NCBI GenBank assembly: GCA_964236955.1 | Contig: CAXSGP010000020.1 | Location: forward strand, 1 to 54,348 | DNA from: an uncultured Oligoflexus sp. | GTDB lineage: Bacteria > Bdellovibrionota_B > Oligoflexia > Oligoflexales > Oligoflexaceae | Direction: 5' to 3' | Length of the DNA stretch: 54,348 bases | Shown here: piece after piece, positions 2,790 to 45,694 of the stretch | Numbering within the stretch: the stretch's first letter is position 1 | Layout: every line of letters starts with the position of its first letter | Program-made: the position numbers and the translations under genes | Notes under the pieces: generated by a model | Databases searched by the model: none | Seen by the model: the letters and a program-made list of their open reading frames with translations, nothing else | What the model was told of the DNA's origin: nothing

Positions 2790-4661
2790 ATGTCTAAGAA
2801 CCTTCGCAACATTTGCATCATCGCTCACGTTGACCACGGCAAAACGACACTCGTCGATTTTCTTCTGAAACAAGCTGGTACTTTCCAGGCTCATGAAGCC
2901 ACAGCAGACCGCATGATGGACTCAGACTCTCAAGAAAGAGAACGTGGGATTACCATTTCTGCCAAAAATGCGTCGTTCTTGCTTGGTGACGTTAAGGTCA
3001 ATGTTGTGGATACTCCCGGTCACGCCGACTTCGGCGGTGAAGTGGAACGCATCATGGACATGGTCGATGGCGCTATCCTTCTCGTTGACGCGGTGGAAGG
3101 TCCCCTGCCTCAGACTCGTTTCGTACTTCAGAAAGCGATTGATAAAAATCTCAAAATCGCTCTTTGTATCAATAAGGTTGACCGTCCTGAAGCAGTTGGC
3201 AGCACAATGGTTGCAGAATGTGTCGACAAAGCATTCGATTTGTTCGTCGAGCTGGGCGCTTCGGCTGAACAGTGCGACTTCCCTATCATCTATGCCTGCG
3301 CCCGTAAGGGCTGGTGTACGGCTGATGTCGATGCGATCCCTACCCTTCTCGAAGGCGGCGGCGAGCGCACCCTTAAGCCCTTGTTCGACGTTATCCTAGG
3401 CTTCCCTTCGCCATCAGCTGACGCGAATGCCGAAGCTCAATTGCTCGTTTCCAACATCGCCTACTCCGATTATCTCGGTAACCTCGCTCTCGGTCGGCTC
3501 GCTTCGGGCAAAGCGAAAAAGGGTCAGGAACTCGTTCGTCACGGCGTTAATGAGAGCGGTCTGCCCGTTACTCAAAAATTCCAAATCTCACGCCTTCTCT
3601 CCTATGAAGGCATGAAGCAGATCGAAGTCGATGAAATCATCGCGGGTGATATCGGTCTCATTGCGGGCTGCGAAGTTCTTGAGATCGGCGATACCCTAAG
3701 CGGTTTGAATGGTAAAGCCTTGAAGCGTATCAGCGTTGAAGAGCCAACGATGCGCATGATCTTCTCAATTAATACCACGCCCAACTCAGGACGTGACGGC
3801 AAAGCGATTCAGTCGCGCGATCTTCGGCAGCGTCTTTTGAATGAGATTCGTAGCAACGTGGCGCTTCGTCTTGAAGACACCGAACAAGCGGATCAATTTT
3901 ATCTCCTGGGCCGCGGCGAATTGCAGTTCGGTATCCTTATCGAAAAAATGCGTCGTGAAGGCTATGAGTTCATGATTGGTCGTCCCAACGTTTTGATGAA
4001 GACCGAAAATGGCAACAGGATGGAACCTTACGAGAAGATGACTCTCGATCTTCCCGAGACCTGCTCGGGTGAAGTGACGAAGATGTACCAGCAGCGTAAA
4101 GGGGTTTTGACCTCCTACGAAGCGGCATCAGCTGCCAACACCGAAGAGCAACGGGTTCGTTTGATCTTTGAGATACCAACGCGCGGAATCCTCGGTACCA
4201 ACTCCATGTTTAAGACTGCAACCCGTGGATCGGGCCTTATCAGCTCGGAATCAATTGGTTATAAGCCGCATGCCGGAACTATCTTTCACCGTCAGACAGG
4301 CAGTTTGATCGCTGACCGTACCGGTAGCACCACCGAATATGCCCTTGCTTCCGTTCAGGAACGGGGTGTGTTGTTTATCGGTGAGGGTGTTGAAGTCTAC
4401 GAAGGTATGATCATTGGTGAGTGCGCTAAAGACAACGACCTTAATGTCAACCCGGTCAAGCCTAAAAAATTGACGAACATGCGGACCACCGGTTCAGACG
4501 GTATCACGAACCTATACGGTATCAAGCAAATGAGTCTTGAGAAATGTATCGAGTGGATCGATGATGACGAGTGGATCGAAGTCACGCCAAAGTCGATTCG
4601 TTTGCGTAAAAAACAATTGGCTGCCAACCTGCGAAGTGTTCGTAAAGCCGACCGTGTCTAA
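2790..4661 (+). CDS. typA: Translational GTPase TypA/BipA
   Basis: [39 protein letters not shown] and C-terminal EVTPKSIRLRK. AAGGA RBS precedes ATG 2790. Confidence 0.97.
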   Translation: MSKNLRNICIIAHVDHGKTTLVDFLLKQAGTFQAHEATADRMMDSDSQERERGITISAKNASFLLGDVKVNVVDTPGHADFGGEVERIMDMVDGAILLVDAVEGPLPQTRFVLQKAIDKNLKIALCINKVDRPEAVGSTMVAECVDKAFDLFVELGASAEQCDFPIIYACARKGWCTADVDAIPTLLEGGGERTLKPLFDVILGFPSPSADANAEAQLLVSNIAYSDYLGNLALGRLASGKAKKGQELVRHGVNESGLPVTQKFQISRLLSYEGMKQIEVDEIIAGDIGLIAGCEVLEIGDTLSGLNGKALKRISVEEPTMRMIFSINTTPNSGRDGKAIQSRDLRQRLLNEIRSNVALRLEDTEQADQFYLLGRGELQFGILIEKMRREGYEFMIGRPNVLMKTENGNRMEPYEKMTLDLPETCSGEVTKMYQQRKGVLTSYEAASAANTEEQRVRLIFEIPTRGILGTNSMFKTATRGSGLISSESIGYKPHAGTIFHRQTGSLIADRTGSTTEYALASVQERGVLFIGEGVEVYEGMIIGECAKDNDLNVNPVKPKKLTNMRTTGSDGITNLYGIKQMSLEKCIEWIDDDEWIEVTPKSIRLRKKQLAANLRSVRKADRV

Positions 4662-8467: not shown

Positions 8468-8570
8468 ACTCTGCTGCATTCAAAAAGCCAAGGTGAGGAA
8501 TGCACGCCTAATTTCCACGAAAGGTTCAAACAACTGACCATAACCAGTTATTGTGATTTTAGCATTCGGC

Positions 8571-8615
8571 AAACGCTCGTTTACCAAGTAGAATCGTAAA
8601 CGGGCGTTTCTTTTT
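8571..8615 (+). terminator. Rho-independent terminator
   Basis: AAACGCTCGTTTAC-loop-GTAAACGGGCGTTT followed by CTTTTT. Confidence 0.75.
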
Positions 8616-8637
8616 CTGTGAAATAAGGGTTACTTTC

Positions 8638-9047
8638 ATGACATTTAGGCCCGTCAGCTTGATTGTACAAAGCCGCTCTGGGCAGAATACCCTCATTACG
8701 CAAAGCATCGAACATCACGCCCCCATCATTAAAAAAACGGACGAAGGCTTGCTGCCGATGTTTCAGAGGCACACGTCGGCATCTCTAAGCATTTATGAAA
8801 ATTCCGACAATCCGCTAAGAACTGATCTCACTAGGGGGAAATCGATCCCATCGATTTGGAAAATCCTTCGCATGCCCTTGCTGACGATAGGCCCGCGCCG
8901 GTGAAGACCAGCCTTCTCGGATTATCGTTAGGGAGCGCCATCATCAAGGTCAGGCTAGGCCTTGGCTGCTGGCCGGGCCCTTTCCTTGGCGAGCGTCGCC
9001 ACTTGTTTCACGCCCGGGAAACCGTCGGCTCCACCTGGGGCGATTGA
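8638..9047 (+). pseudogene. yjbQ: Frameshifted, decayed YjbQ (UPF0047) gene
   Basis: One frame encodes HTSASLSIYENSD..LRTDL. An overlapping frame encodes DDRPAPVKTSLLG..RLGLGCWPGPFLGERR..WGD*. These match the N- and C-halves of YjbQ. Confidence 0.85.
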
Positions 9048-9139
9048 AGCCGGGACTCTCATAAATTGAAACCTGAAATTAATTTCAAATGCGCCGCAAC
9101 ACGAAACAACACTTGGTTCTGAAGCATTGGGAGTTTGAT

Positions 9140-10519
9140 ATGGCGATGAGTGTTTTTGATCTATTCAAGGTGGGCATCGGACCCTCGAGTTCTCATACGG
9201 TAGGTCCCATGCGTGCTGGTCAAAGATTTCTCAAAGGCCTGGAAGAAAAAAACCTGATGGCAAGTGTCGCCAGCGTCACGGTCGAGCTCTACGGATCTTT
9301 AGCGTTGACCGGCATCGGTCACGGTACGGACAAAGCGATCATGCTGGGTCTTTCCGGAGAATTGCCCGATCAAATTGATCCGGAAACGATAGAACCTAAA
9401 CTCAAGCTCATAAAATCCGCAGGTCAGTTATCCCTTGGCGGCCAGCATCTTATTGATTTTGATCATCAAAAGCACATAGTCTTTCTGCGCCGCAAGCTTC
9501 TGCCCCATCATTCCAATGGTATGCGGTTTACCGCCTATGATGCCAACTATAAGGAGCTCCATGCGCGCGTCTACTATTCCATTGGCGGGGGTTTTGTCGT
9601 CAACGAGGAAAACGCCAAACAGGATAAGCTTGCCAAAGATACGACCCAAGTCAAATATCCCTTCGAATCGGCCGCCGCTCTCCTTGCCACCTGCAAGCGG
9701 GAAAATCTTCGGATCGATCAGGTTATGCTGGCCAATGAATTGAGTTGGCGAAGTGAGGCCGAGGTTGGCAAAGGTCTCGACTTTCTGTGGAGCATGATGA
9801 AGGACTGTATCGATAGAGGCTGCCGCAACGAAGGCATTTTACCCGGCAAACTCAAGGTCAAACGTCGGGCTCCCGACCTTTATAAGGACCTGACGGCCAA
9901 TCCCCAAAAAGCTCTGAAAGATCCCTTAACGATACTCGACTGGGTCAACCTCTATGCCCTGGCGGTGAATGAAGAAAATGCAGCGGGATCACGCGTGGTC
10001 ACAGCGCCAACTAACGGTGCGGCCGGCATTATTCCCTCCGTTCTCAAATACTATGAAGAATTCTGTCCGTCAGCGGATCGCGAAGGCGTTCATCGGTTTC
10101 TCCTGACCGCGGCGGCGGTAGGCGTTCTCTATGCAGAAAACGCTTCGATCTCGGGAGCCGAAGTCGGCTGTCAGGGTGAAGTCGGCGTCGCCTGCAGCAT
10201 GGCAGCCGGTGGCCTGACCGCGGCGGTAGGAGGGACTCCGACCCAGGTTGAGGAAGCGGCTGAGATCGGCATGGAACATAATCTGGGACTGACCTGCGAT
10301 CCGATCGGCGGGCTCGTTCAGATCCCCTGCATCGAACGCAATGCGATGGGTGCCGTGAAAGCGATCAATGCCAACCGCATCGCCATGAAACGCGAAGGCG
10401 CCCACCACGTGTCGCTTGATTCGGTCATTGCCACGATGAGGGCTACCGGCGCGGATATGAAGACTAAATACAAGGAAACATCCCGTGGAGGTTTGGCGGT
10501 AAACGTCATAGAATGCTGA
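9140..10519 (+). CDS. sdaA: L-serine ammonia-lyase (Fe-S, fused beta/alpha)
   Basis: [35 protein letters not shown] and [19 protein letters not shown]. Confidence 0.97.
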
Positions 10520-37141: not shown

Positions 37142-37180
37142 GGCTTCCCTTGCCTTCGCGCGAGGGGGCCTTTTATTTTA
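37142..37180 (+). terminator. Rho-independent terminator after ald
   Basis: GGCTTCCCTTGC-CTTCGC-GCGAGGGGGCC followed by TTTTATTTT. Confidence 0.7.
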
Positions 37181-37191
37181 CAGGCTTCTTG

Positions 37192-38058
37192 ATGAACAAT
37201 TCGTATCGCCTCCTGGACAGTGGAAATTTTGAAAAGCTCGAGCAGGTCGGGCCCTTTCGCATCATCAGACCGTCGCCACAGGCCGTCTGGAAGCCCTCAC
37301 AGGTCAAGCTCTGGACCAAGGTGGATGCGCATTTCAAGAGATTTGCCGGGGGCGATGGCAAATGGGATATCAATAACCCCTCTATCAAAAAGCCTTGGCT
37401 TATCGACTATGGGGGGCTTTCGCTGCAAATTGAAACCACCGATTTCGGTCACCTCGGTCTTTTTCCTGAACAGCGTATGAACTGGCAGCGCATTCGAAAC
37501 CTTTGTCATCAGGGTTCACGCAATAGCGAAGAATTTCATGTTCTCAATCTCTTTGCCTACACCGGAGGTTCAAGCCTTGCTGCCGCGCAAGGTGGGGCAA
37601 CCGTTGCCCATGTGGATGCATCGCGGACCAGCGTGGCCTGGGCCCGTCTCAACGCCGACGTCAATCAACTCACGCAGGCTCCCATCCGATGGTTGACCGA
37701 CGATGTGCAAAAGTTTGTGGCCCGTGAGATTCGCCGCAATCGACTTTATAAAGGTATCATCCTCGATCCGCCGAGTTTTGGCCGGGGGACGAATGGCGAA
37801 ACCTGGAAGATCGAAGAGCATCTTATCGACTTGCTTGATTCCATAAGGAATATTCTGCATCCGGATTTTAGTTTTTTCCTGTTGAGCTCGCATTCCAATG
37901 GTTATACGCCGATCGCCATGCAAAATCTTTTGAGTTCACTTTTGAGTGAGGTGAAAGGCCGATTTATCGCCGAAGAGATGCTGGTGGATGAGGACGGTGG
38001 AACCGGACGGGCCCTGCCGAGTGGTGCCTCGACCTGGTTTATCCGAGATGCCGAATGA
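37192..38058 (+). CDS. Class I SAM-dependent methyltransferase (RlmI/RlmK-like catalytic domain)
   Basis: HLGLFPEQ, VLNLFAYTGGSS, HVDAS and IILDPPSF motifs. Confidence 0.9.
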   Translation: MNNSYRLLDSGNFEKLEQVGPFRIIRPSPQAVWKPSQVKLWTKVDAHFKRFAGGDGKWDINNPSIKKPWLIDYGGLSLQIETTDFGHLGLFPEQRMNWQRIRNLCHQGSRNSEEFHVLNLFAYTGGSSLAAAQGGATVAHVDASRTSVAWARLNADVNQLTQAPIRWLTDDVQKFVAREIRRNRLYKGIILDPPSFGRGTNGETWKIEEHLIDLLDSIRNILHPDFSFFLLSSHSNGYTPIAMQNLLSSLLSEVKGRFIAEEMLVDEDGGTGRALPSGASTWFIRDAE

Positions 38059-38840
38059 TGATGATCACGAGTGCACAAAATTCCAAGATCAAAGAGCTGG
38101 TTGCTTTACGGGAAAGTAAGACGCGGCGCGAGCTGGGTCTTTTTTTGGTCGAAGGCGCACGGGAGCTAGGCCGGGCCTTGGACTCTGGTTACACTTGCCG
38201 CACGCTTTATATCGAAGAAAATCTTTTGAGCCCTGAGGCAGAGGTTTTGGTCGGACGGCTGCCTCAAACGTTACAGTATGGGGTTTCAAAGCAAGCCTAT
38301 GCAAAAGCTGCCGTTCGTGAGAGCTCCGACGGTGTCCTGGCTGTCATGGAAGTCAAGACCGCCCAGTTTGCCGATATCAAAGCCCGAGCGGTCCCCTTTC
38401 TCCTGGTCCTGGAGAACCTGGAAAAACCAGGCAATTTCGGAGCGCTGGCCAGAAGCGCCGACGGTGCCGGTGTCGATGCCATTATTGTGCTCGATCCCCA
38501 CGCGGATCTCTTTAATCCCCATGCGATCCGGGCCAGCGTCGGCGCGCTTTTCAGTCAGCCGCTGATTGCGGCAACCCATGCCGAGTTTATGGACTATTGC
38601 CAAAAGCAGGGTATCAAGATACTTGCTGCCAGTCCCCATGCCCAAAACTTTCATTATCAGGCTGACCTAAAAGGTGCGGTGGCATTGGTCCTAGGTTCAG
38701 AGGCCTGGGGGCTGTCCAGTTCCTGGCAGGCAACCGATTCTGAACTCTTAAAAATTCCCATGAATGGCCGTGCCGACTCGCTTAACGTATCGGTCGCCGG
38801 TGCGATCATAATGTACGAGATTTTGCGGCAGCGTTCTTAA
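38055..38840 (+). CDS. TrmH/SpoU-family RNA 2'-O-methyltransferase
   Basis: EKPGNFGALARSA, GSEAWGL and IPM.G.ADSLNVS motifs. Confidence 0.93.
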   Translation: MMMITSAQNSKIKELVALRESKTRRELGLFLVEGARELGRALDSGYTCRTLYIEENLLSPEAEVLVGRLPQTLQYGVSKQAYAKAAVRESSDGVLAVMEVKTAQFADIKARAVPFLLVLENLEKPGNFGALARSADGAGVDAIIVLDPHADLFNPHAIRASVGALFSQPLIAATHAEFMDYCQKQGIKILAASPHAQNFHYQADLKGAVALVLGSEAWGLSSSWQATDSELLKIPMNGRADSLNVSVAGAIIMYEILRQRS

Positions 38841-38857
38841 GAAATATCGGGAAGTTC

Positions 38858-38901
38858 AAAAAAATGGGCCCTCTCAGCAGCTGTGAGAGGACCCATTTTT
38901 T
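38858..38901. terminator. Bidirectional terminator
   Basis: AAAAAAATGGGCCCTCTCA..TGAGAGGACCCATTTTTT between convergent genes. Confidence 0.85.
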
Positions 38902-38915
38902 ACTCGGAGCAGGCT

Positions 38916-40103
38916 CTATTCGGCAGCGGCAGGATTCGCATCACTGTATTTTTTGCCCGCGTATAGGTCAAAGATTAAGAGACGGCAGGCGATGCCTCCG
39001 TTATCGACTGGGATTTTGCGTTTGGGTCTCAGGCCGATAAATTTGTAAGGTGTGTCGGCACCGACCAGGATAGCGGCTTTCCAACCCGAGTACTTTTGCT
39101 TCAAAGTGTCGCCAACTTTTTTATAGAACTCTTTCATGTGATCTTCGTCAGACTGACCGATACGCTCGCCGTAAGGAAAGTTGCTGAGAAGCAGGCCCGT
39201 TTCCGCCGGTGCCTCGACGTTAAAGAAGGATCCACGATAGAAATTAATATATTTTTCGACGCGGGCGCGCAGTGCATTTTCACGCGAAGCATCCACGTAC
39301 TGCTGTTCGATATCGCTGGCAAAGATTTTGCCGAGCGGCTGTTCCCGTTTATCGAGGCGGCAATCGTCTTGAACTTTACGCCAAAGTTGGGAATCGAAGG
39401 TGACAAAGTTCTCAAAAGCAAACTCACCCTTGCGGCGGTGAATGAGAGCCGCTTTGTTCAGCGATATAAAACTGGCTTCAATTGCAATTGTGCCACTGCC
39501 ACACATAGGATCATAAAAGTTTTGGCTGCCGTCATAACCAGCTAGATAGAGGAGGGCCGCCGCCATATTCTCTTTGAGCGGCGCCGGATGGTTTTCCATC
39601 CTGTAACCGCGTTTATGCATAGATTTGCCAGTAGAATCGAGGCTTAGAGTGAGTTCACCGCCGTGAAGGTGGGCAACGACCTTGATCTTAGGCTCTTTCA
39701 GGTTTACTTTGGGAACCGGCAATTCCTTATGCCTATAGTAGTCTTCAAGGCCCATGCGCACGGCCTTACTGATATCCGTAGCAGATGGAGCGTCTGGGCC
39801 GCGGTCGCCGGCTACACCCTCGACAAGGTATGTTGAGTCAGCACGGAAATATTCATTCCATTTGATTTTTCTAGCCTGGTTAGTGATGACGGGGAGACTG
39901 GAGCCTGAGGCTTTTTTAATGACCAGGAGCAAACGCGAGGGCGTCTGCAGTTTTAAATGAAGGCGATAGGCCAGCTCTTGTTCGGCGTCGAATGAGACAG
40001 CTTTATAGCCTGGTTTCACGTTTTCAGCGCCGTAGATCTCAAGTTCCTTTGCGACTGCCTCGACAGCGTCTTCGGAACAGATGGCAATGAAATTCAAGTG
40101 CAC
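38916..40103 (-). CDS. THUMP-domain RNA methyltransferase (RlmL/YpsC-like)
   Basis: SMHKRGYR, APLKENMAAA, DPMCGSGTIAIEA and NFPYGER motifs; AAAGGA RBS before GTG 40103. Confidence 0.92.
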   Translation of the reverse strand: MHLNFIAICSEDAVEAVAKELEIYGAENVKPGYKAVSFDAEQELAYRLHLKLQTPSRLLLVIKKASGSSLPVITNQARKIKWNEYFRADSTYLVEGVAGDRGPDAPSATDISKAVRMGLEDYYRHKELPVPKVNLKEPKIKVVAHLHGGELTLSLDSTGKSMHKRGYRMENHPAPLKENMAAALLYLAGYDGSQNFYDPMCGSGTIAIEASFISLNKAALIHRRKGEFAFENFVTFDSQLWRKVQDDCRLDKREQPLGKIFASDIEQQYVDASRENALRARVEKYINFYRGSFFNVEAPAETGLLLSNFPYGERIGQSDEDHMKEFYKKVGDTLKQKYSGWKAAILVGADTPYKFIGLRPKRKIPVDNGGIACRLLIFDLYAGKKYSDANPAAAE

Positions 40104-40256
40104 AGTGAAGTCCTTTCTAGAGCGCTTTGATTCTAGTTGTGAGACTTCGTAGAGTCTGGCAAAAACTAGGGTCATTTTAGGATGATTTACTCAAAGCGCG
40201 GATTCGTGTATCTCTGTAGCCTCGACATCTGAGGACATAACATAAAGGATTGGCTT

Positions 40257-40793
40257 ATGGCAGATATGAAACAGCAAGTCAAAGAAATCGAGAAAACCAT
40301 CGATTTTGCTAAGACTAAATATGAAGTTCACTTGGATACATCGCATGGCATGATCAAGCTTGAGCTTTTCCCCGAACAGGCGCCGGGCCATGTTAAGAAT
40401 ATAGTTTCATTGGCGAAAGCCGGATTCTATAACGGCGTTGTGTTTCACCGTATCATCAAAGGCTTTATGATTCAGGGTGGATGCCCTCAAGGCACTGGCA
40501 CGGGTGGGCCTGGGTATCATATCCCCGCGGAATTTAATAACATTCCTCATGAGCCAGGCGTTTTGTCGATGGCTCGCACCAGCGATCCCAACTCGGCTGG
40601 TTCCCAGTTCTTCCTTTGCCTGGAGCGTGTGCCCTACCTTGATGGTCAGTACACAGTTTTTGGTAAAACCCTCGACAAAGACAGTCTCGACATTGTGAAA
40701 AAAATTGGTGAAGTGCGAACTGGCCCTCAGGATAGACCGGTCGAGCCAGTGGTGATCAAGTCTGCTACTGTCAAAGAATCAACAATTAATTGA
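40257..40793 (+). CDS. Cyclophilin-type peptidyl-prolyl cis-trans isomerase
   Basis: FHRIIKGFMIQGG, SMAR, SAGSQFF and LDGQYTVFG. Confidence 0.96.
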   Translation: MADMKQQVKEIEKTIDFAKTKYEVHLDTSHGMIKLELFPEQAPGHVKNIVSLAKAGFYNGVVFHRIIKGFMIQGGCPQGTGTGGPGYHIPAEFNNIPHEPGVLSMARTSDPNSAGSQFFLCLERVPYLDGQYTVFGKTLDKDSLDIVKKIGEVRTGPQDRPVEPVVIKSATVKESTIN

Positions 40794-40807
40794 GTTGACG
40801 CGGGTTT

Positions 40808-41170
40808 CTACAGGGGTTTGTAATGTGCCAAATAAGCTGCTGTAAGCCCCAGTAGTAAAACCACGACCCAAATCAAGCCGGCAAGATTTTTCTTGCGTGC
40901 TGCAAGTGCGCCAACTCCACCAAGTGCAACCCAGATAATTAGTTTGCCGACGACCCAGGCGGGAAATCCGATCTGCAATTTGGCTATCATTCCAAAGCCT
41001 GCCACCAATACCAACAATAGACCCACGCCATGATAAAGTGCGATCCACTTCCGGGCCTGTGTGCGCTTCGAATCATTGCCATTCAAAGATTGTGTGATCT
41101 GGCCACCAAGCGCGGAGAAGACCATGAAAATACCTAAAAAGTGCACAAGTTTATAAAAGTCAAAGGTCAT
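40808..41170 (-). CDS. Small four-TM membrane protein (SirB2-like)
   Basis: YKLVH, HGVGLLLVLVAG and WVVGKL; four hydrophobic helices. Confidence 0.75.
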   Translation of the reverse strand: MTFDFYKLVHFLGIFMVFSALGGQITQSLNGNDSKRTQARKWIALYHGVGLLLVLVAGFGMIAKLQIGFPAWVVGKLIIWVALGGVGALAARKKNLAGLIWVVVLLLGLTAAYLAHYKPL

Positions 41171-41324
41171 TGCCGGCTCCAAGATGCGGTTGATGGGCAT
41201 GGGGAAAGTATCGAACTATTGTCCTGATAGCCACTTGGAAATGCGCACACGCGGGCATTTTCGCGTGGCGAGCGGCTTCTTTCCTGAGGTGGCAGTGCGG
41301 GGATCTTGCAAGGCTTGGGAGCCG

Positions 41325-41810
41325 CTAGGCAATGGGAGATTGCGTGGGCTTTGACGAACGCTTTTTGCGAAAAAAATCTTTGAGCAGATTGGCGCTTTCC
41401 TGCTCCAGAATGCGGTCGGTCACCTGAAAGCGATGATTCAATCGGGTGTCTTCGTTGAGCTGGTAAAGACTGCCGAGCGCTCCCCCCTTGGGATCCATCG
41501 CTCCAAAAACAACGCGTGGAATACGCGCCTGATAGATTGCCCCGGCACACATGAGACAAGGTTCAAGCGTCACGTACAGCGTGCAGTCCTGTAGACGCCA
41601 TGCCTTCCGAACCCGCGAAGCTTCTTCGATTGCAAGGAGTTCGGCGTGGGCGCTGGCCTGGCAAATTGATTCGCGAAGATTGATGCCCGTGCCTATGATG
41701 CGCCCCTCATGAACGACGACGGCTCCCACCGGAACTTCGAGGAGCAACGCTGCCGCCTCCGCCAGAGAGAGCGCATACTGCATCCAAAACTTATCGATGT
41801 CCGGGATCAC
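41325..41810 (-). CDS. tadA: tRNA adenosine(34) deaminase
   Basis: EVPVGAV, AHAE, LYVTLEPCLMCAGA, DPKGGA and FF..KR. Confidence 0.95.
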   Translation of the reverse strand: MIPDIDKFWMQYALSLAEAAALLLEVPVGAVVVHEGRIIGTGINLRESICQASAHAELLAIEEASRVRKAWRLQDCTLYVTLEPCLMCAGAIYQARIPRVVFGAMDPKGGALGSLYQLNEDTRLNHRFQVTDRILEQESANLLKDFFRKKRSSKPTQSPIA

Positions 41811-42706
41811 TGAACCACCCGCCTTTTGCCGGCGATGTGTTTGGCTATATTGCCGAGCCGCCTTAGGCCGAGATGCTGCATGATGCGCTCGGCGTCCCAG
41901 CCGTTTTCCAGAAAATATTCGATCGCATAATGCCGGAGATTTTCGGTGTTGATGTGCGGAATTTGAAAGCGTTCGCCAAGCTCATAGAGCAGAAATTTCA
42001 GTCCATGCCTCGTCATTCGCGGCAGAACCAGCGATCCATCTTTACCCTTGAACGAAACGAAGAGCCAATGAAATTGGGCCTGCTGCGATATGCTTCGGGT
42101 CGCGAGCCAACCCTTAAAATAATTGAGATAACCAACAACGGCTTCAGTGCTTGCCGGAGAAAGCAGAATGCTGCGACTTTTCACCCCTGGTACGAAGAGC
42201 GAACCCGCCGTAGACGAAGCGACAAAATCGCTGATCTGCAAGTCCGTTAATTCGTGAGCTTTGATTCCTTCGAAAGCAAGGAGACGAAGGATAGCGATAT
42301 CCCGAGCTGATTTCAAATGGCTTGATTGCATTGATAAGAGTGCGCTTTCGATTTGTCCGGGAATGATCGGCTGTTTTAAGGCTTCATCCCGTTCGGGCAG
42401 GGGCATCGCATCGAAGGGGGAATCACTGATGACTTTTTCGACGGCCAAAAAGCGGAAAAATTGTCTGATGCCAATGATCTTACGACGAACGGAATTCTCA
42501 CGGTCCTTTTCGGAGAATGACAGGTGATCACGAAAGGCAAGGAGAGTTTCGGGTTCGACGGCCTTCAGCGGCAGCTTAAAGGAATCGAGATAGCGCAGAA
42601 ACTCGATCGCATCACGGCAATAGGATTCGACCGTTGCCGCCTGGCGGTCTTTCGATCGGAGATTGTCAGCAAATCGCTTTAGAATGTCGTCGGTTGTGGG
42701 TGTCAT
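41807..42706 (-). CDS. XerC/D-like tyrosine recombinase homologue with degenerate catalytic residues
   Basis: SAM-like N-domain (TVESY.RD, SVRRK..GIRQFFRFL); RD.AIL.LL; LRH. GGAG RBS before ATG 42706. Catalytic R/H/H/Y positions are substituted. Confidence 0.88.
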   Translation of the reverse strand: MTPTTDDILKRFADNLRSKDRQAATVESYCRDAIEFLRYLDSFKLPLKAVEPETLLAFRDHLSFSEKDRENSVRRKIIGIRQFFRFLAVEKVISDSPFDAMPLPERDEALKQPIIPGQIESALLSMQSSHLKSARDIAILRLLAFEGIKAHELTDLQISDFVASSTAGSLFVPGVKSRSILLSPASTEAVVGYLNYFKGWLATRSISQQAQFHWLFVSFKGKDGSLVLPRMTRHGLKFLLYELGERFQIPHINTENLRHYAIEYFLENGWDAERIMQHLGLRRLGNIAKHIAGKRRVVQ

Positions 42707-42960
42707 CGAGGCATTCTCCGTGTTGGGAAGGCTGGGTGCGGAGCCTGGCGCCTGGAGCCTTATAGTACTCGCTTTCATTTCGATCGAGAAGATTTTCCTG
42801 GGTCCCCCCGTGAGATGATATCCGCCGCGTTCGATAGCTTCTGCAAATTCTGCTATCTTAAATCGAGCCAAGCTGGAGCCTTACCAAATCGCGAACCGAA
42901 ATGAAGTCGAAAGTGAAAAGAAGAGATTCCAATGCATGAGCAGATGAGGAGTATGCCGAC

Positions 42961-45261
42961 TTGACTATTATAAAGAAGAAGTGGCTGCAGTTTGGTAATC
43001 GTGAGGAAAGAAAACGGTTCTTTGAAATCGCTGCGATGCTTTTGATCGCTTTATCATTTGTCGCCTTGTCCCGGCTTGAAGGCCGGTTGTTTGATCTTAG
43101 CAAGGCCCTGTCCAATCATCCCGAGTTCTTTAACTCCGTCGTATATTTCGGACTGATCAATATCAACGTCGTCCTGATTTTGATTCTGTGCTTTTTGCTC
43201 TTTCGCAATATTATCAAGTTGGTTTTAGAACGGCGGCATGGTGTCATTGGCTCCCGCCTCAGAACCAAGCTCGTCCTAGCTCTGGTGTTCTTTGCTTTGG
43301 CTCCTACGGCTCTGCTCTTCTATATTTCCACTCGATTTTTAACGGAGAGTTTCGAAACCTGGTTTTCCACCCGAGTCGAGGCTACCATGCACCGAACGCG
43401 GGAGGCAGGAGCCATGGTTTACGATAGGGACCAACGGCGATTGGCCAGCCTGTCCCGCCTCGCCCTCCAAAAAATTCAGGTCTATAAGATAAATGCAGGG
43501 AATTTTGAATGGAATGAGATCAACCCTCAGGGCCTTAGGGGCTTTGCCCGCGAATACAAAGTATCCAGTATTAGGGTTTATGATCAGGATTCCAATTTGC
43601 TTTGGCACAATGAATCAAAGCGGCGCGAACTGGGCTCGGAAAAGGAAAAGCGTTTTGTCGTCAATGCAATTCAAAGTTTTTCCAGCAATTTAACGATGCT
43701 GTCGCGCGCCATTGTCGATGCTGATGATGGGGTCGACATCGTCCGAGGCGTGGCTCCCATCGTTGATCCCCGAACCAAGACGGTCCGAGGCGTGGTAGTG
43801 CTTGAAGAGCGCTTTGAAACGCAGATTCTGCAAAGTGTTGAGACCATCATTCAAGAGTTTGCGAGTTTAAAACCGGGGGCCGAGCTGATACGGATCAGCT
43901 ACGTGATCCTTTTGGTCCTTATGGCAGTTATTATCATTTTTTCGGCGACCTGGTTTGGCTTTTATGTGGCCAGGGGCATCATTGCTCCCATTCAACGGCT
44001 TGCCGATGCCACGCGGGAGGTAGCATTGGGAAATTATGGGATAACGCTTGAAGTCAAGACTGACGATGAAACGGGTCAGCTCTTTCGGGCTTTCAATGGT
44101 ATGACCTTTGACCTGCGCGAGCACGAGCAAAAAGTCAAACAGTTCACAGCCGAGCTTGAACGAACCAATGAAGAACTGGATCGGCGGCGCAAGTATATGG
44201 AAATTATCCTAAAGAATATTGCCGCTGGCGTTTTAGCCGTTGACTCCGAGGATAGGATCACAAGTATAAATCCTGCGGCAGAAAAACTGCTTGGTCTGAA
44301 TCAAACGGCCCATCTCGGGCAAAAGATCGAACAGGCGCTTTTGCCCGGCCTGGTGGAGGCGCTCTGGAAACCCATTAAGGAACGGGTGCAATTTAGTAAT
44401 TTTAGCGGTGAAATAGACTTGTCGGATATAGGTATCAACCTTACTCTACTGGCCGACGCCACCCGCTTTGTCGATGAAAACAATGAAGACCATGGTGTCG
44501 TCATAGTCATCGATGATGCAAGCGAACAGGTGAAAGTCCAAAGAGTCGCGGCTTGGCGGGAGGTGGCAAGGCGCATTGCTCATGAAATTAAGAATCCGCT
44601 GACCCCTATTAAAATCAGTGCGCAGCGCCTGCTTAGAAAATTTGGCGATCAGTTTGAAGGCAAGGATCACCAGATTTTTGAATCATGCATCAGTACCATC
44701 GTATCCGAGGTGGATGCCCTGCGCGACTTGGTCAATGAATTCTCGAAGTTCTCGCGTCTGCCTTCGATCAAAACCAGGCCTGAGCCTCTGGCCGATCTGT
44801 TGCATCAGGCTTTAAGTCTCTTTAATGTCGGCTATGAGCATATAGAGTTTGATTCTTCGAAGGTGCGTGATGATATGCCACTGGTTCCTTTGGATCGTGA
44901 GCAAATGATTAGAGTTTTTACGAATATCATCACCAATGCCATCGCCTCGATGCCGGAAGACAGGGAGCGGGCGATAATTTCCATTAGTGCTCGATTGCTG
45001 GAAGACGTCAATGTCATTCGAATCGAGATCGCAGACAATGGATCTGGTATTCCTGAGGCTCTCAAACAGCGGGTACTGGAGCCTTATTTCTCCACCAAGA
45101 AGGAAGGGACAGGACTGGGACTGGCAATCGTCAATCAAATAATTTCTGACCATGGCGGATATTTGCGCATTCAGGATAATGTGCCTGTCGGCACCGTTGT
45201 GATAATCGAACTTCCTATTTTAGAGATCGGAGTTCGAAAAAGGATGAATACCGATGTCTGA
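42961..45261 (+). CDS. ntrY: NtrY-like sensor histidine kinase (TM-HAMP-PAS-HisKA-HATPase)
   Basis: GSRLRTKLV, AAWREVARRIAHEIKNPLTPI, LVNEFS.F.RLP, DNG.GI and PYFSTK.EGTGLGL. Confidence 0.93.
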   Translation: MTIIKKKWLQFGNREERKRFFEIAAMLLIALSFVALSRLEGRLFDLSKALSNHPEFFNSVVYFGLININVVLILILCFLLFRNIIKLVLERRHGVIGSRLRTKLVLALVFFALAPTALLFYISTRFLTESFETWFSTRVEATMHRTREAGAMVYDRDQRRLASLSRLALQKIQVYKINAGNFEWNEINPQGLRGFAREYKVSSIRVYDQDSNLLWHNESKRRELGSEKEKRFVVNAIQSFSSNLTMLSRAIVDADDGVDIVRGVAPIVDPRTKTVRGVVVLEERFETQILQSVETIIQEFASLKPGAELIRISYVILLVLMAVIIIFSATWFGFYVARGIIAPIQRLADATREVALGNYGITLEVKTDDETGQLFRAFNGMTFDLREHEQKVKQFTAELERTNEELDRRRKYMEIILKNIAAGVLAVDSEDRITSINPAAEKLLGLNQTAHLGQKIEQALLPGLVEALWKPIKERVQFSNFSGEIDLSDIGINLTLLADATRFVDENNEDHGVVIVIDDASEQVKVQRVAAWREVARRIAHEIKNPLTPIKISAQRLLRKFGDQFEGKDHQIFESCISTIVSEVDALRDLVNEFSKFSRLPSIKTRPEPLADLLHQALSLFNVGYEHIEFDSSKVRDDMPLVPLDREQMIRVFTNIITNAIASMPEDRERAIISISARLLEDVNVIRIEIADNGSGIPEALKQRVLEPYFSTKKEGTGLGLAIVNQIISDHGGYLRIQDNVPVGTVVIIELPILEIGVRKRMNTDV

Positions 45262-45694
45262 ATTCAAAAACAAAACCAAGGGCTTCGTTGCCTTGGTTGT
45301 GGATGACGAGCGAAGGATACGGCAAGCCTTGACTGATCTCATCGAGGATGAAGGTTGGAGCGTTTTGAGTGCGGAGGAGGGAACAACGGCTTTGCATATC
45401 TTTGCCCGAAGCGAGCCCGACCTTGTTCTCTTGGATATTTGGATGCCAGGAATCGACGGCATCGAGACGCTACAAAGAATGAAAGTCCTAAAACCTGACG
45501 TACCAGTGGTTATCATGAGTGGCCATGGAACGATCGACACTGCGATTCGCGCGACTCGGCTTGGAGCCTTCGATTATCTTGAAAAGCCGCTTTGCATCGA
45601 CAAGATCTACCCCCTTTTGATTCATGCCGAACGCCTTCGCGCTGTTAGGGAGAGCCGGCGGGCGGCCATTGCCGGTTTGCCTGAGCATCCGTGA
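45254..45694 (+). CDS. NtrX-type response regulator, receiver domain only
   Basis: VVDDE, LLDIWMPGIDG, MSGHGTIDTA..AT.LGAFDYLEKP; stops after the receiver domain. Confidence 0.85.
   Translation: MSEFKNKTKGFVALVVDDERRIRQALTDLIEDEGWSVLSAEEGTTALHIFARSEPDLVLLDIWMPGIDGIETLQRMKVLKPDVPVVIMSGHGTIDTAIRATRLGAFDYLEKPLCIDKIYPLLIHAERLRAVRESRRAAIAGLPEHP

Follow-up and report, generated by a model that had tools for sequence, protein, structure and literature searches.

An XerD-type protein with a remodelled active site, probably a non-cleaving DNA binder, in Oligoflexus and its relatives

The Xer/dif system of chromosome dimer resolution is near-universal. The window analyzed here, a stretch of 54,348 nucleotides from an uncultured Oligoflexus sp. 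(contig CAXSGP010000020.1, positions 1 to 54,348), carries on its reverse strand a gene, pseudo-XerD (41807..42706), whose product, P0001, has the build of XerD and lacks four of the six catalytic residues of a tyrosine recombinase. This raises the question of what such a protein does. A first-pass annotation had proposed a domesticated recombinase, catalytically dead and kept as an intact gene, that works as a DNA-binding regulator, a nucleoid protein, or a modulator of Xer enzymes. We found the gene to be intact, single copy, and vertically inherited across a phylum-level lineage, where it is under strong purifying selection. We consider it likely that P0001 is an ancient pseudo-recombinase of the XerD type that has kept both clamp domains, does not carry out tyrosine-recombinase cleavage, and serves chromosome maintenance as a non-cleaving DNA binder. 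Positions below are those of the window unless a contig is named; genomes (G), loci (L), families (f), and the genus g10 carry the labels of this analysis, G000 being the genome from which the window comes.

Gene, fold, and catalytic positions of pseudo-XerD

An alternative, longer frame for P0001 would reach up to a TTG at 42871. We place the start at the ATG at 42706, where the alignments of the homologues begin (position 3 of the family profile corresponds to residue 62 of the stop-to-stop frame). The Shine-Dalgarno region is kept in the close relatives L021 and L022 as GGAGAATGCCT(C/T)GATG, in agreement with the intact frame of 299 amino acids (aa) and the good ribosome-binding site described in the first-pass annotation. 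The gene, its domains, and its catalytic positions are arranged as follows.

41807..42706, reverse strand: pseudo-XerD gene (P0001), 299 codons and a TGA stop, no internal stop, supported by profile matches, AlphaFold2, and Foldseek
42715..42719, reverse strand: Shine-Dalgarno-like GGAGA, 8 nt before the ATG at 42704-42706
42413..42694, reverse strand: N-terminal core-binding (SAM-like) DNA-binding domain, residues ~5-98, with PF02899 on residues 10-91
41810..42355, reverse strand: C-terminal catalytic-fold domain with a remodelled pocket, residues ~118-299, from PF00589 on residues 124-282 and from alignments
42260..42262, reverse strand: K149 in place of Arg-I (motif EGIKAHEL), from the XerD alignment
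42179..42181, reverse strand: K176, retained at the position of the beta-hairpin general-acid Lys, from the XerD alignment
41942..41944, reverse strand: E255 in place of His-II (ENLRH), from the XerD alignment
41933..41935, reverse strand: R258, the retained Arg-II, from the XerD alignment; Arg in 120/120 listed homologues
41864..41866, reverse strand: L281 in place of His/Trp-III (HLGL); Leu in 120/120 listed homologues
41837..41839, reverse strand: H290 at the position of the tyrosine nucleophile (GNIAKH), from the alignment

By profile (PF00589 and PF02899) and by its two-domain fold, P0001 belongs to the tyrosine recombinase superfamily. Both Pfam matches exceed the gathering score, PF02899 with 32.8 bits (cut-off 22.3) and PF00589 with 32.2 bits (cut-off 27.1), and the latter covers profile positions 12-157 of 172, ending before the tyrosine. 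The best-scoring named family is XerD (TIGR02225), with 99.3 bits over profile positions 2-262 of 290, followed by XerC (73.7) and XerA (62.2); the XerD score lies far below the family cut-off of 329.6 bits. The AlphaFold2 model, built with 54 family sequences (pLDDT 94.5, pTM 0.80), forms a complete recombinase clamp. Its best Foldseek matches are XerA, IntI (the integron integrase), Cre, XerD, and XerH, all with probability 1.00, and the TM score against DNA-bound Cre is 0.70. A search of the ESM Atlas with P0001 returned generic integrase clusters only, the nearest of which is labelled Bdellovibrionota. In the model, the N-terminal domain consists of helices 5-18, 23-42, 52-65, and 70-89, and within the family the residues T25, Y29, R31, D32, F36, N71, S72, R74, R75, I78, R81, and R85 are invariant. 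Together with the PF02899 match, these residues bear out the earlier statement that the DNA-binding domain at the N terminus has been kept.

We assigned the catalytic positions by alignment to Escherichia coli XerD (PDB 1a0p) and to the intact recombinases L040-L043 described below. Homologues came from a word-indexed search that yielded 206 sequences, of which the best 120, down to 41% identity, were listed. A profile search over 1.84 billion representatives gave 145 clusters at E <= 1e-30; the representative rows considered here are 136 sequences at >=148 bits, fragments included, which were picked by score rank and not by their residues. P0001 has K149, K176, E255, R258, L281, and H290 at the catalytic positions, and thus keeps only the Lys and Arg-II of the set. 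Lys occupies position 149 in 120/120 listed homologues and in 128 of the 136 representatives (Arg in 2, gaps in 6), and Glu occupies position 255 in 120/120 listed homologues. H290 lies nine residues past position III, at the same spacing as the Tyr in L040-L043 and in the outgroup family f17, and P0001 has no Tyr past residue 262. The replacements that the first-pass annotation had read as loss of the catalytic set (Arg to Lys, ENLRH, HLGL, and GNIAKH, with no Tyr in the C-terminal tail) therefore correspond to K149, E255, L281, and H290 in our alignment. It had also taken the change of the GKG turn to VPGVK as a further departure; the turn is indeed altered, but its Lys is not lost, as K176 still stands at the catalytic position. 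Of the 120 listed homologues, 80 have Arg at this hairpin position and 40 have Lys.

The region around the nucleophile position has been reorganized. The tail motif HLGLRRLGNIAKH of P0001 is nearly invariant among the 120 listed homologues, and a short, variable, basic tail takes the place of the helix that canonical enzymes conserve after the Tyr. Within the 54-sequence alignment, the residues E255, R258, H259, L281, G285, N286, and H290 of the pocket are invariant. Among the 136 representatives, position 290 is His in 96, Tyr in 11, Phe in 2, Ile in 2, and Val, Asn, and Lys in one each, with gaps in 22. Position 255 is Ser in the genus g10, and the outgroup families show other combinations.

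Family f17: Lys at Arg-I, Gln at His-II, His kept at His-III, Tyr kept at the nucleophile position
Families f18 and f19: Lys at Arg-I, Glu at His-II, Tyr at His-III, Phe at the nucleophile position

Judged from these alignments, the four replacements form an ancient, lineage-fixed pattern in which the change of Arg-I to Lys is common to the whole lineage and the nucleophile was lost by different routes on different branches. Where position 290 is Phe, Ile, Val, Asn, or Lys, as in some family members, or Phe, as in f18 and f19, no nucleophile can be required, which also argues against a new one. That the branches lost it by separate routes speaks strongly for a shared function that does without a nucleophile. 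The excerpted text of a mutational study of Cre (PMC2943603) provides an experimental yardstick for the loss of the catalytic set: all 19 substitutions of Tyr324, His included, were without detectable recombination, the hairpin Lys was strictly required, and R173K was inactive in vitro. P0001 resembles XerD (1a0p, TIGR02225) in length, two-domain architecture, core-binding domain, the 'MTR' motif, Arg-II with the His that follows it, and the Glu after position I. It differs from XerD in the replacement of Arg-I, His-II, His-III, and Tyr and in having no conserved helix after the nucleophile position.

Conservation and the recombinase complement of the lineage

The family profile of pseudo-XerD matches 124 of 131 genomes of the phylum, including 81 of the 83 high-quality ones, and there is almost always one match per genome. 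Within the order of the window the scores run from ~190 to 456 bits, a few partial matches aside, and they are lower in the three outgroup families (f17, f18, and f19). Where synonymous sites were unsaturated, the ratio of nonsynonymous to synonymous substitution rates (dN/dS) was 0.051, 0.059, and 0.067 for the pairs among L016, L029, and L030 and 0.121 for L015/L020, indicating purifying selection. Between the window gene and its closest locus, L021, the proportions of nonsynonymous (pN) and synonymous (pS) differences are 0.12 and 0.76, the latter being saturated. The homologues come from sources named Oligoflexus, Pseudobacteriovorax, and 'Proteobacteria' or 'Deltaproteobacteria' bins, and these names, together with the protein atlas, point to Oligoflexia or Bdellovibrionota as the carrier lineage. 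We also considered an integrase of a mobile element and rejected it: in the window and at 10 related loci the neighbours are housekeeping genes with no transposase among them, and the gene is single copy and vertically inherited.

We then asked which other tyrosine recombinases accompany P0001. In its own genome, which is 86% complete, PF00589 also matches a phage-type integrase of 374 aa, an integrase of 368 aa, and a fragment. Over 31 genomes of the order, nothing reached the XerD cut-off, and no XerC-type partner was identified. Pseudo-XerD is the sole match (E <= 1e-5) in 8 of these genomes and the best match in 20 of the 29 that have any; the strongest other match, at 223.8 bits, is a canonical-looking 297-aa protein encoded on a contig of 2.2 kb, in a bin whose contamination is 8%. 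In the closed genomes G022 and G069 and the near-closed G068, pseudo-XerD is the only PF00589 match. The closed G005 has two more, in frames of 373 aa and 440 aa that look like phage-type integrases. Unlike the XerCD/dif arrangement, then, the closed relatives of P0001 show no XerC partner. RecA is present in the closed or near-closed genomes that have no other PF00589 match, and chromosome dimers should therefore arise in them. The FtsK gamma domain (PF09397) was found in G005 and G119 and not in the closed G022 and G069, nor in G000 at its 86% completeness. ScpA was present in 5/5 genomes tested, an observation that is permissive only.

These distributions bear on the role that had been proposed for a domesticated recombinase. 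That P0001 is dead as a tyrosine recombinase, intact, selected, and ancient stands. A general role as an Xer modulator is unlikely: where pseudo-XerD is the sole PF00589 match (G022, G069, and G068), there is no Xer to modulate.

Family f19 differs in its complement. Its genomes carry two Xer-like paralogues of ~340-380 aa with all six catalytic residues beside the Phe-bearing pseudo-Xer, as at the following loci.

G119:C1:740845-741972 and 1302745-1303767; G125:C1:2576472-2577581 and 3274860-3275861: intact Xer-like recombinases (L040-L043)

The intact pair occurs in 32/33 f19 genomes, and 9/95 order-level genomes have weak matches to it (24-32% identity). L040-L043 score far under the XerC and XerD cut-offs; the pair probably represents the f19 dimer resolvases.

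Within the order, a small serine recombinase is a candidate replacement for Xer in dimer resolution. It was present in 5/5 genomes tested, at the following positions.

Own genome, contig C110 (L088), 3298-3879, reverse strand, and 8532-9155, forward strand: small serine recombinases
G005:C1:3643800-3652436 (L085), and L084 in G022, L087 in G068, and L086 in G069: serine recombinase loci in relatives

Of the two own-genome copies, one retains the motif YYRVSTDRQ (YxRVSTxxQ) intact. With the G000 protein as query, the recombinase was found in 88/95 order-level genomes at 49-84% identity, and between the same genomes it is better conserved than pseudo-XerD. Outside the order it was found in 0/2 f17, 0/1 f18, and 2/33 f19 genomes, the last two being weak matches (33-34% identity). 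The distributions of the serine recombinase and of the intact Xer-like pair therefore complement each other. Most genomes of family f1 have two copies of the serine recombinase gene. In the own genome and in G005 the copies are inverted relative to each other and 5-8 kb apart, and the interval contains conserved genes.

We next compared the position of the serine recombinase with that of the replication terminus. In the closed G005, with dnaA at 460, 10/11 windows sampled between 3.15 and 3.67 Mb have a positive GC skew and 7/7 between 3.70 and 4.02 Mb a negative one, and the recombinase pair at 3.644-3.652 Mb falls at this switch, 48.2% of the genome from dnaA. In G069 the distance from the gene to the dnaA antipode is 4.5% of the genome; the skew profile is patchy, and a local switch in it is ~250 kb away from the gene. 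In G068 the gene lies ~8% from the antipode of the main contig. The G022 gene is just 20% of the genome from dnaA, which counts against a terminus position there. A clean skew switch was seen in G005 only; in G022 (40 sampled 20-kb windows) and G069 the skew was patchy, with no clean two-replichore pattern. Beside the serine recombinase, the only inverted repeats were the two paralogous genes themselves, and no shared 9-mer exceeded the level of shuffled sequences except A/T runs. Taken together, we regard the small serine recombinase as a tentative candidate for a replacement dimer resolvase. The excerpts of an Xer review (PMC5357621) describe known dimer-resolution systems that are all based on tyrosine recombinases. 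It is less probable, and in our view rather unlikely, that the whole order gave up Xer-type dimer resolution, kept a dead XerD for DNA binding (SMC unloading or terminus marking), and passed the cutting to the small serine recombinase. If this were true, it would be the first serine-recombinase dimer-resolution system and a natural separation of the catalytic and non-catalytic functions of XerD.

Two further observations concern tyrosine recombinases found along the way. The contigs G024:C734 and G024:C430 each carry three tandem tyrosine-recombinase matches, a layout that resembles the mobile elements called 'recombinase in trio'. In addition, chain 14 of PDB 9i5v (401 aa), which was deposited as the ribosome-associated translation inhibitor RaiA, aligns with P0001 over its N-terminal half (E 7.6e-4). 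Its Arg-I and hairpin-Lys motifs are canonical, and it appears to be either an XerC-like/RaiA fusion or a mislabelled frame.

Possible functions of a pseudo-recombinase

As a likely non-cleaving binder, P0001 would embrace DNA as a C-shaped clamp, with contacts made by the conserved core-binding domain and by the retained phosphate-contacting residues K149, K/R176, R258, and H259, and would serve chromosome maintenance in a housekeeping capacity for which catalysis was never needed. Because f19 has two intact Xer-like enzymes beside pseudo-XerD and the order has none, the task of the protein would be separate from dimer resolution. The specific role that we favour, though with low confidence, is taken by analogy from Bacillus subtilis XerD, the best-matching precedent, and would be sequence-specific binding near the terminus that unloads or blocks Smc-ScpAB. 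In B. subtilis this unloading role is reportedly independent of catalysis. The unloading of Smc-ScpAB by XerD at XDS is credited to Karaboja 2021. According to the excerpts of two later papers that cite this work (PMC11840125 and PMC12322038), B. subtilis XerD unloads Smc-ScpAB near the terminus, at XDS sites that resemble dif. As seen in those excerpts, the likeness lies in an XerD-type clamp whose job is based on binding and not on strand exchange. The difference is that B. subtilis XerD is also an active recombinase, and XDS-like sites were not identified here.

Several observations weigh against a chromosome-maintenance clamp. The link to SMC rests on analogy, and the presence of ScpA does not discriminate. 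The former active-site pocket is frozen, not drifting, as would suit a pocket with some specific task still to perform, and simple DNA clamping offers no obvious explanation for this; an order-wide operon with a tadA-type gene provides no tie to chromosome organization. Searches for binding sites were also unfavourable. No motif was shared upstream of pseudo-XerD across 15 lineage groups, and the downstream words shared across the same groups were tadA coding sequence only, with no site among them. Within species groups the upstream intergenic region does contain conserved blocks. One of these belongs to the G005 species group (L016 and L028-L031; G005:C1:7093843-7093855): the 13-mer CTATGTTAATCTA, which stands 20-30 nt upstream of the start codon. 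Its core TATGTTAA resembles the XerD arm of dif; elsewhere in 5 genomes, the 13-mer occurred at control level. The classical dif core, ATAA-N6-TTATGTNAA, was found 0 times in G005, 0 times in G022, and once in G069, a search that a diverged site would escape, and in the AT-rich f19 genomes the pattern was at control level.

Of the alternatives, the one that survives best, although we think it improbable, is a sequence-specific transcription regulator or a general nucleoid-associated protein unrelated to chromosome segregation. Its targets could be its own pseudo-xerD-tadA operon, by autoregulation, or the divergent NtrY-like two-component genes. The conserved gene order around pseudo-XerD, with the kinase operon divergent upstream and tadA downstream, fits a regulator, as do the conserved upstream blocks within species groups, including the TATGTTAA-containing 13-mer of the G005 group. 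However, no upstream motif is common to the lineages, the species group of the window itself does not have the 13-mer, and in the outgroups the gene order differs while the protein persists. A full recombinase clamp would, moreover, be an unusual scaffold for a simple repressor.

We rate still lower a role as a non-catalytic architectural subunit of another recombination machine, in which P0001 would mark or bend sites for the small serine recombinase of the order or would partner the intact Xer-like enzymes of f19. Inactive tyrosine-recombinase derivatives can act as DNA target selectors: in the excerpted text of PMC10293859, TnsF of Tn6022-like Tn7 elements is an inactive derivative co-opted for site recognition and DNA bending. 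Suitable partners are widespread as well, with the serine recombinase in 88/95 order genomes and two intact paralogues in 32/33 f19 genomes. Against this, each clade would need a different partner for one and the same pseudo-enzyme, the genes are unlinked in the own genome (serine recombinases on C110, pseudo-XerD on C20), and no shared site lies beside either gene. TnsF itself differs from P0001 in being transposon borne, in having zinc fingers, and in having no catalytic chamber, whereas P0001 is encoded by a core gene in a housekeeping context, retains the whole fold, and has no Tn7-like element at its locus.

Very unlikely, in our estimate, is the possibility that P0001 is still an enzyme, with the remodelled invariant pocket (K149, E152, K/R176, E255, R258, H259, N286, and H290) as a new active site. 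Such an enzyme would use H290 as a nucleophile via a phospho-histidine intermediate, or a water activated by Glu or His, and would be the dimer resolvase of the lineage or a site-specific nuclease. The pocket residues are invariant, or nearly so, beyond what is expected of a dead site; three closed or near-closed genomes with RecA have no other tyrosine-recombinase homologue; the FtsK gamma domain persists in G005; and 11/136 representatives have Tyr at position 290. Yet position 290 is Phe, Ile, Val, Asn, or Lys in 7 representatives and Phe in the f18 and f19 orthologues, and the strictly required Lys is Arg in two-thirds of the members (80/120 listed). Furthermore, Cre was without activity for any Tyr substitution, His included, in the excerpts of PMC2943603, the helix past the Tyr is replaced by the short basic tail, and neither G022 nor G069 gave a match to the FtsK gamma domain. 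A purely structural, aromatic-like role at position 290 would fit the alternation of His, Tyr, and Phe there but not the invariant E255 and N286. These two residues leave a slight chance that the pocket performs a new chemistry or binds a ligand.

We reject a recently decayed xerD on its way to a pseudogene as scarcely credible, since nothing speaks for it except the missing catalytic residues, and against it stand identical substitutions in 120/120 listed homologues down to 41% identity, homologue, outgroup, and representative alignments in which no orthologue is catalytically intact, a gene present in 124/131 genomes, a dN/dS of 0.05-0.12, and an uninterrupted frame.

Dead Xer-like proteins are known anecdotally, and the streptococcal YnbA is an example. 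Like P0001, YnbA (annotated 'XerD' in streptococci and lactococci; NF002685) is a chromosomal Xer-like protein without catalytic residues. In the excerpted text of PMC1914069 it lacks the catalytic residues and the extreme C-terminus, shows no recombination at difSL, and has no known function. P0001 has no NF002685 match at E <= 1, and its homologues L015 and L013 reach only 26.8 and 51.5 bits against a cut-off of 178. YnbA also coexists with XerS, whereas pseudo-XerD perhaps has no active Xer at all beside it and its pocket has been remodelled to a fixed new motif. The pseudo-XerD family is set apart by being a class-wide, single-copy core gene whose active site was remodelled and then frozen, and by being the sole homologue in several closed RecA-positive genomes. 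Within the collection searched, we found no relevant paper on XerD in Oligoflexia, none on recombinases lacking the catalytic tyrosine, and none on SMC unloading by XerD versus its recombinase activity. P0001 may thus offer a natural 'binding-only' XerD for asking what XerD-type clamps do besides recombination, with Smc-ScpAB unloading as the obvious candidate. It also draws attention to a lineage in which Xer/dif dimer resolution appears to be missing and a concrete candidate replacement is at hand. Both questions can be tested in cultivable relatives, as Oligoflexus and Pseudobacteriovorax are among the homologue sources.

The locus and its neighbours

Directly downstream of pseudo-XerD, a tadA-type gene begins with a GTG that overlaps the pseudo-XerD stop by 4 nt (GTGA), an overlap from which we conclude that the two genes are probably co-transcribed.

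41325..41810, reverse strand: tadA-type deaminase gene (PF14437 133.9 bits, PF00383 101.2 bits)

At 22/23 order-level loci, in addition to the window, the next gene downstream of pseudo-XerD on the same strand is tadA-like, as against 0/4 outgroup loci. The link may merely reflect the co-expression of two housekeeping genes. In f18 and f19 the neighbours are instead a staphylococcal-nuclease homologue and ribD. A scan of 41100-43100 for promoters and terminators gave hits at the level of shuffled sequences.

Near pseudo-XerD, the window carries a cluster of RNA-modification genes (37150-41810), with a cyclophilin gene between them. In addition to tadA it includes the following genes, assigned by neighbourhood annotation.

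37150-38058: S-adenosylmethionine (SAM) methyltransferase
38055-38840: SpoU-type methylase
38916-40175, reverse strand: THUMP/RlmKL-like methyltransferase

Divergently upstream of pseudo-XerD lie genes for an NtrY-like histidine kinase with a response regulator and for a DUF4388 protein. The gap between the kinase and pseudo-XerD genes is 254 bp in the window (42707-42960) and contains no intervening open reading frame of the kind seen in relatives, where frames of 214-289 aa without a Pfam match lie between the two genes (L016:4267-5001, L017:4195-4851, L018:4205-5071, L019:5949-6590, and L020:4214-4891). The response regulator that follows the kinase in the window (45254-45694, forward strand) is a receiver-only protein of 146 aa. 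At L016, L018, and L019 the corresponding regulator is a sigma-54 activator of 455-487 aa with receiver, AAA+, and helix-turn-helix domains, and L017 has none; the receiver-only form may reflect a deletion in the own genome.

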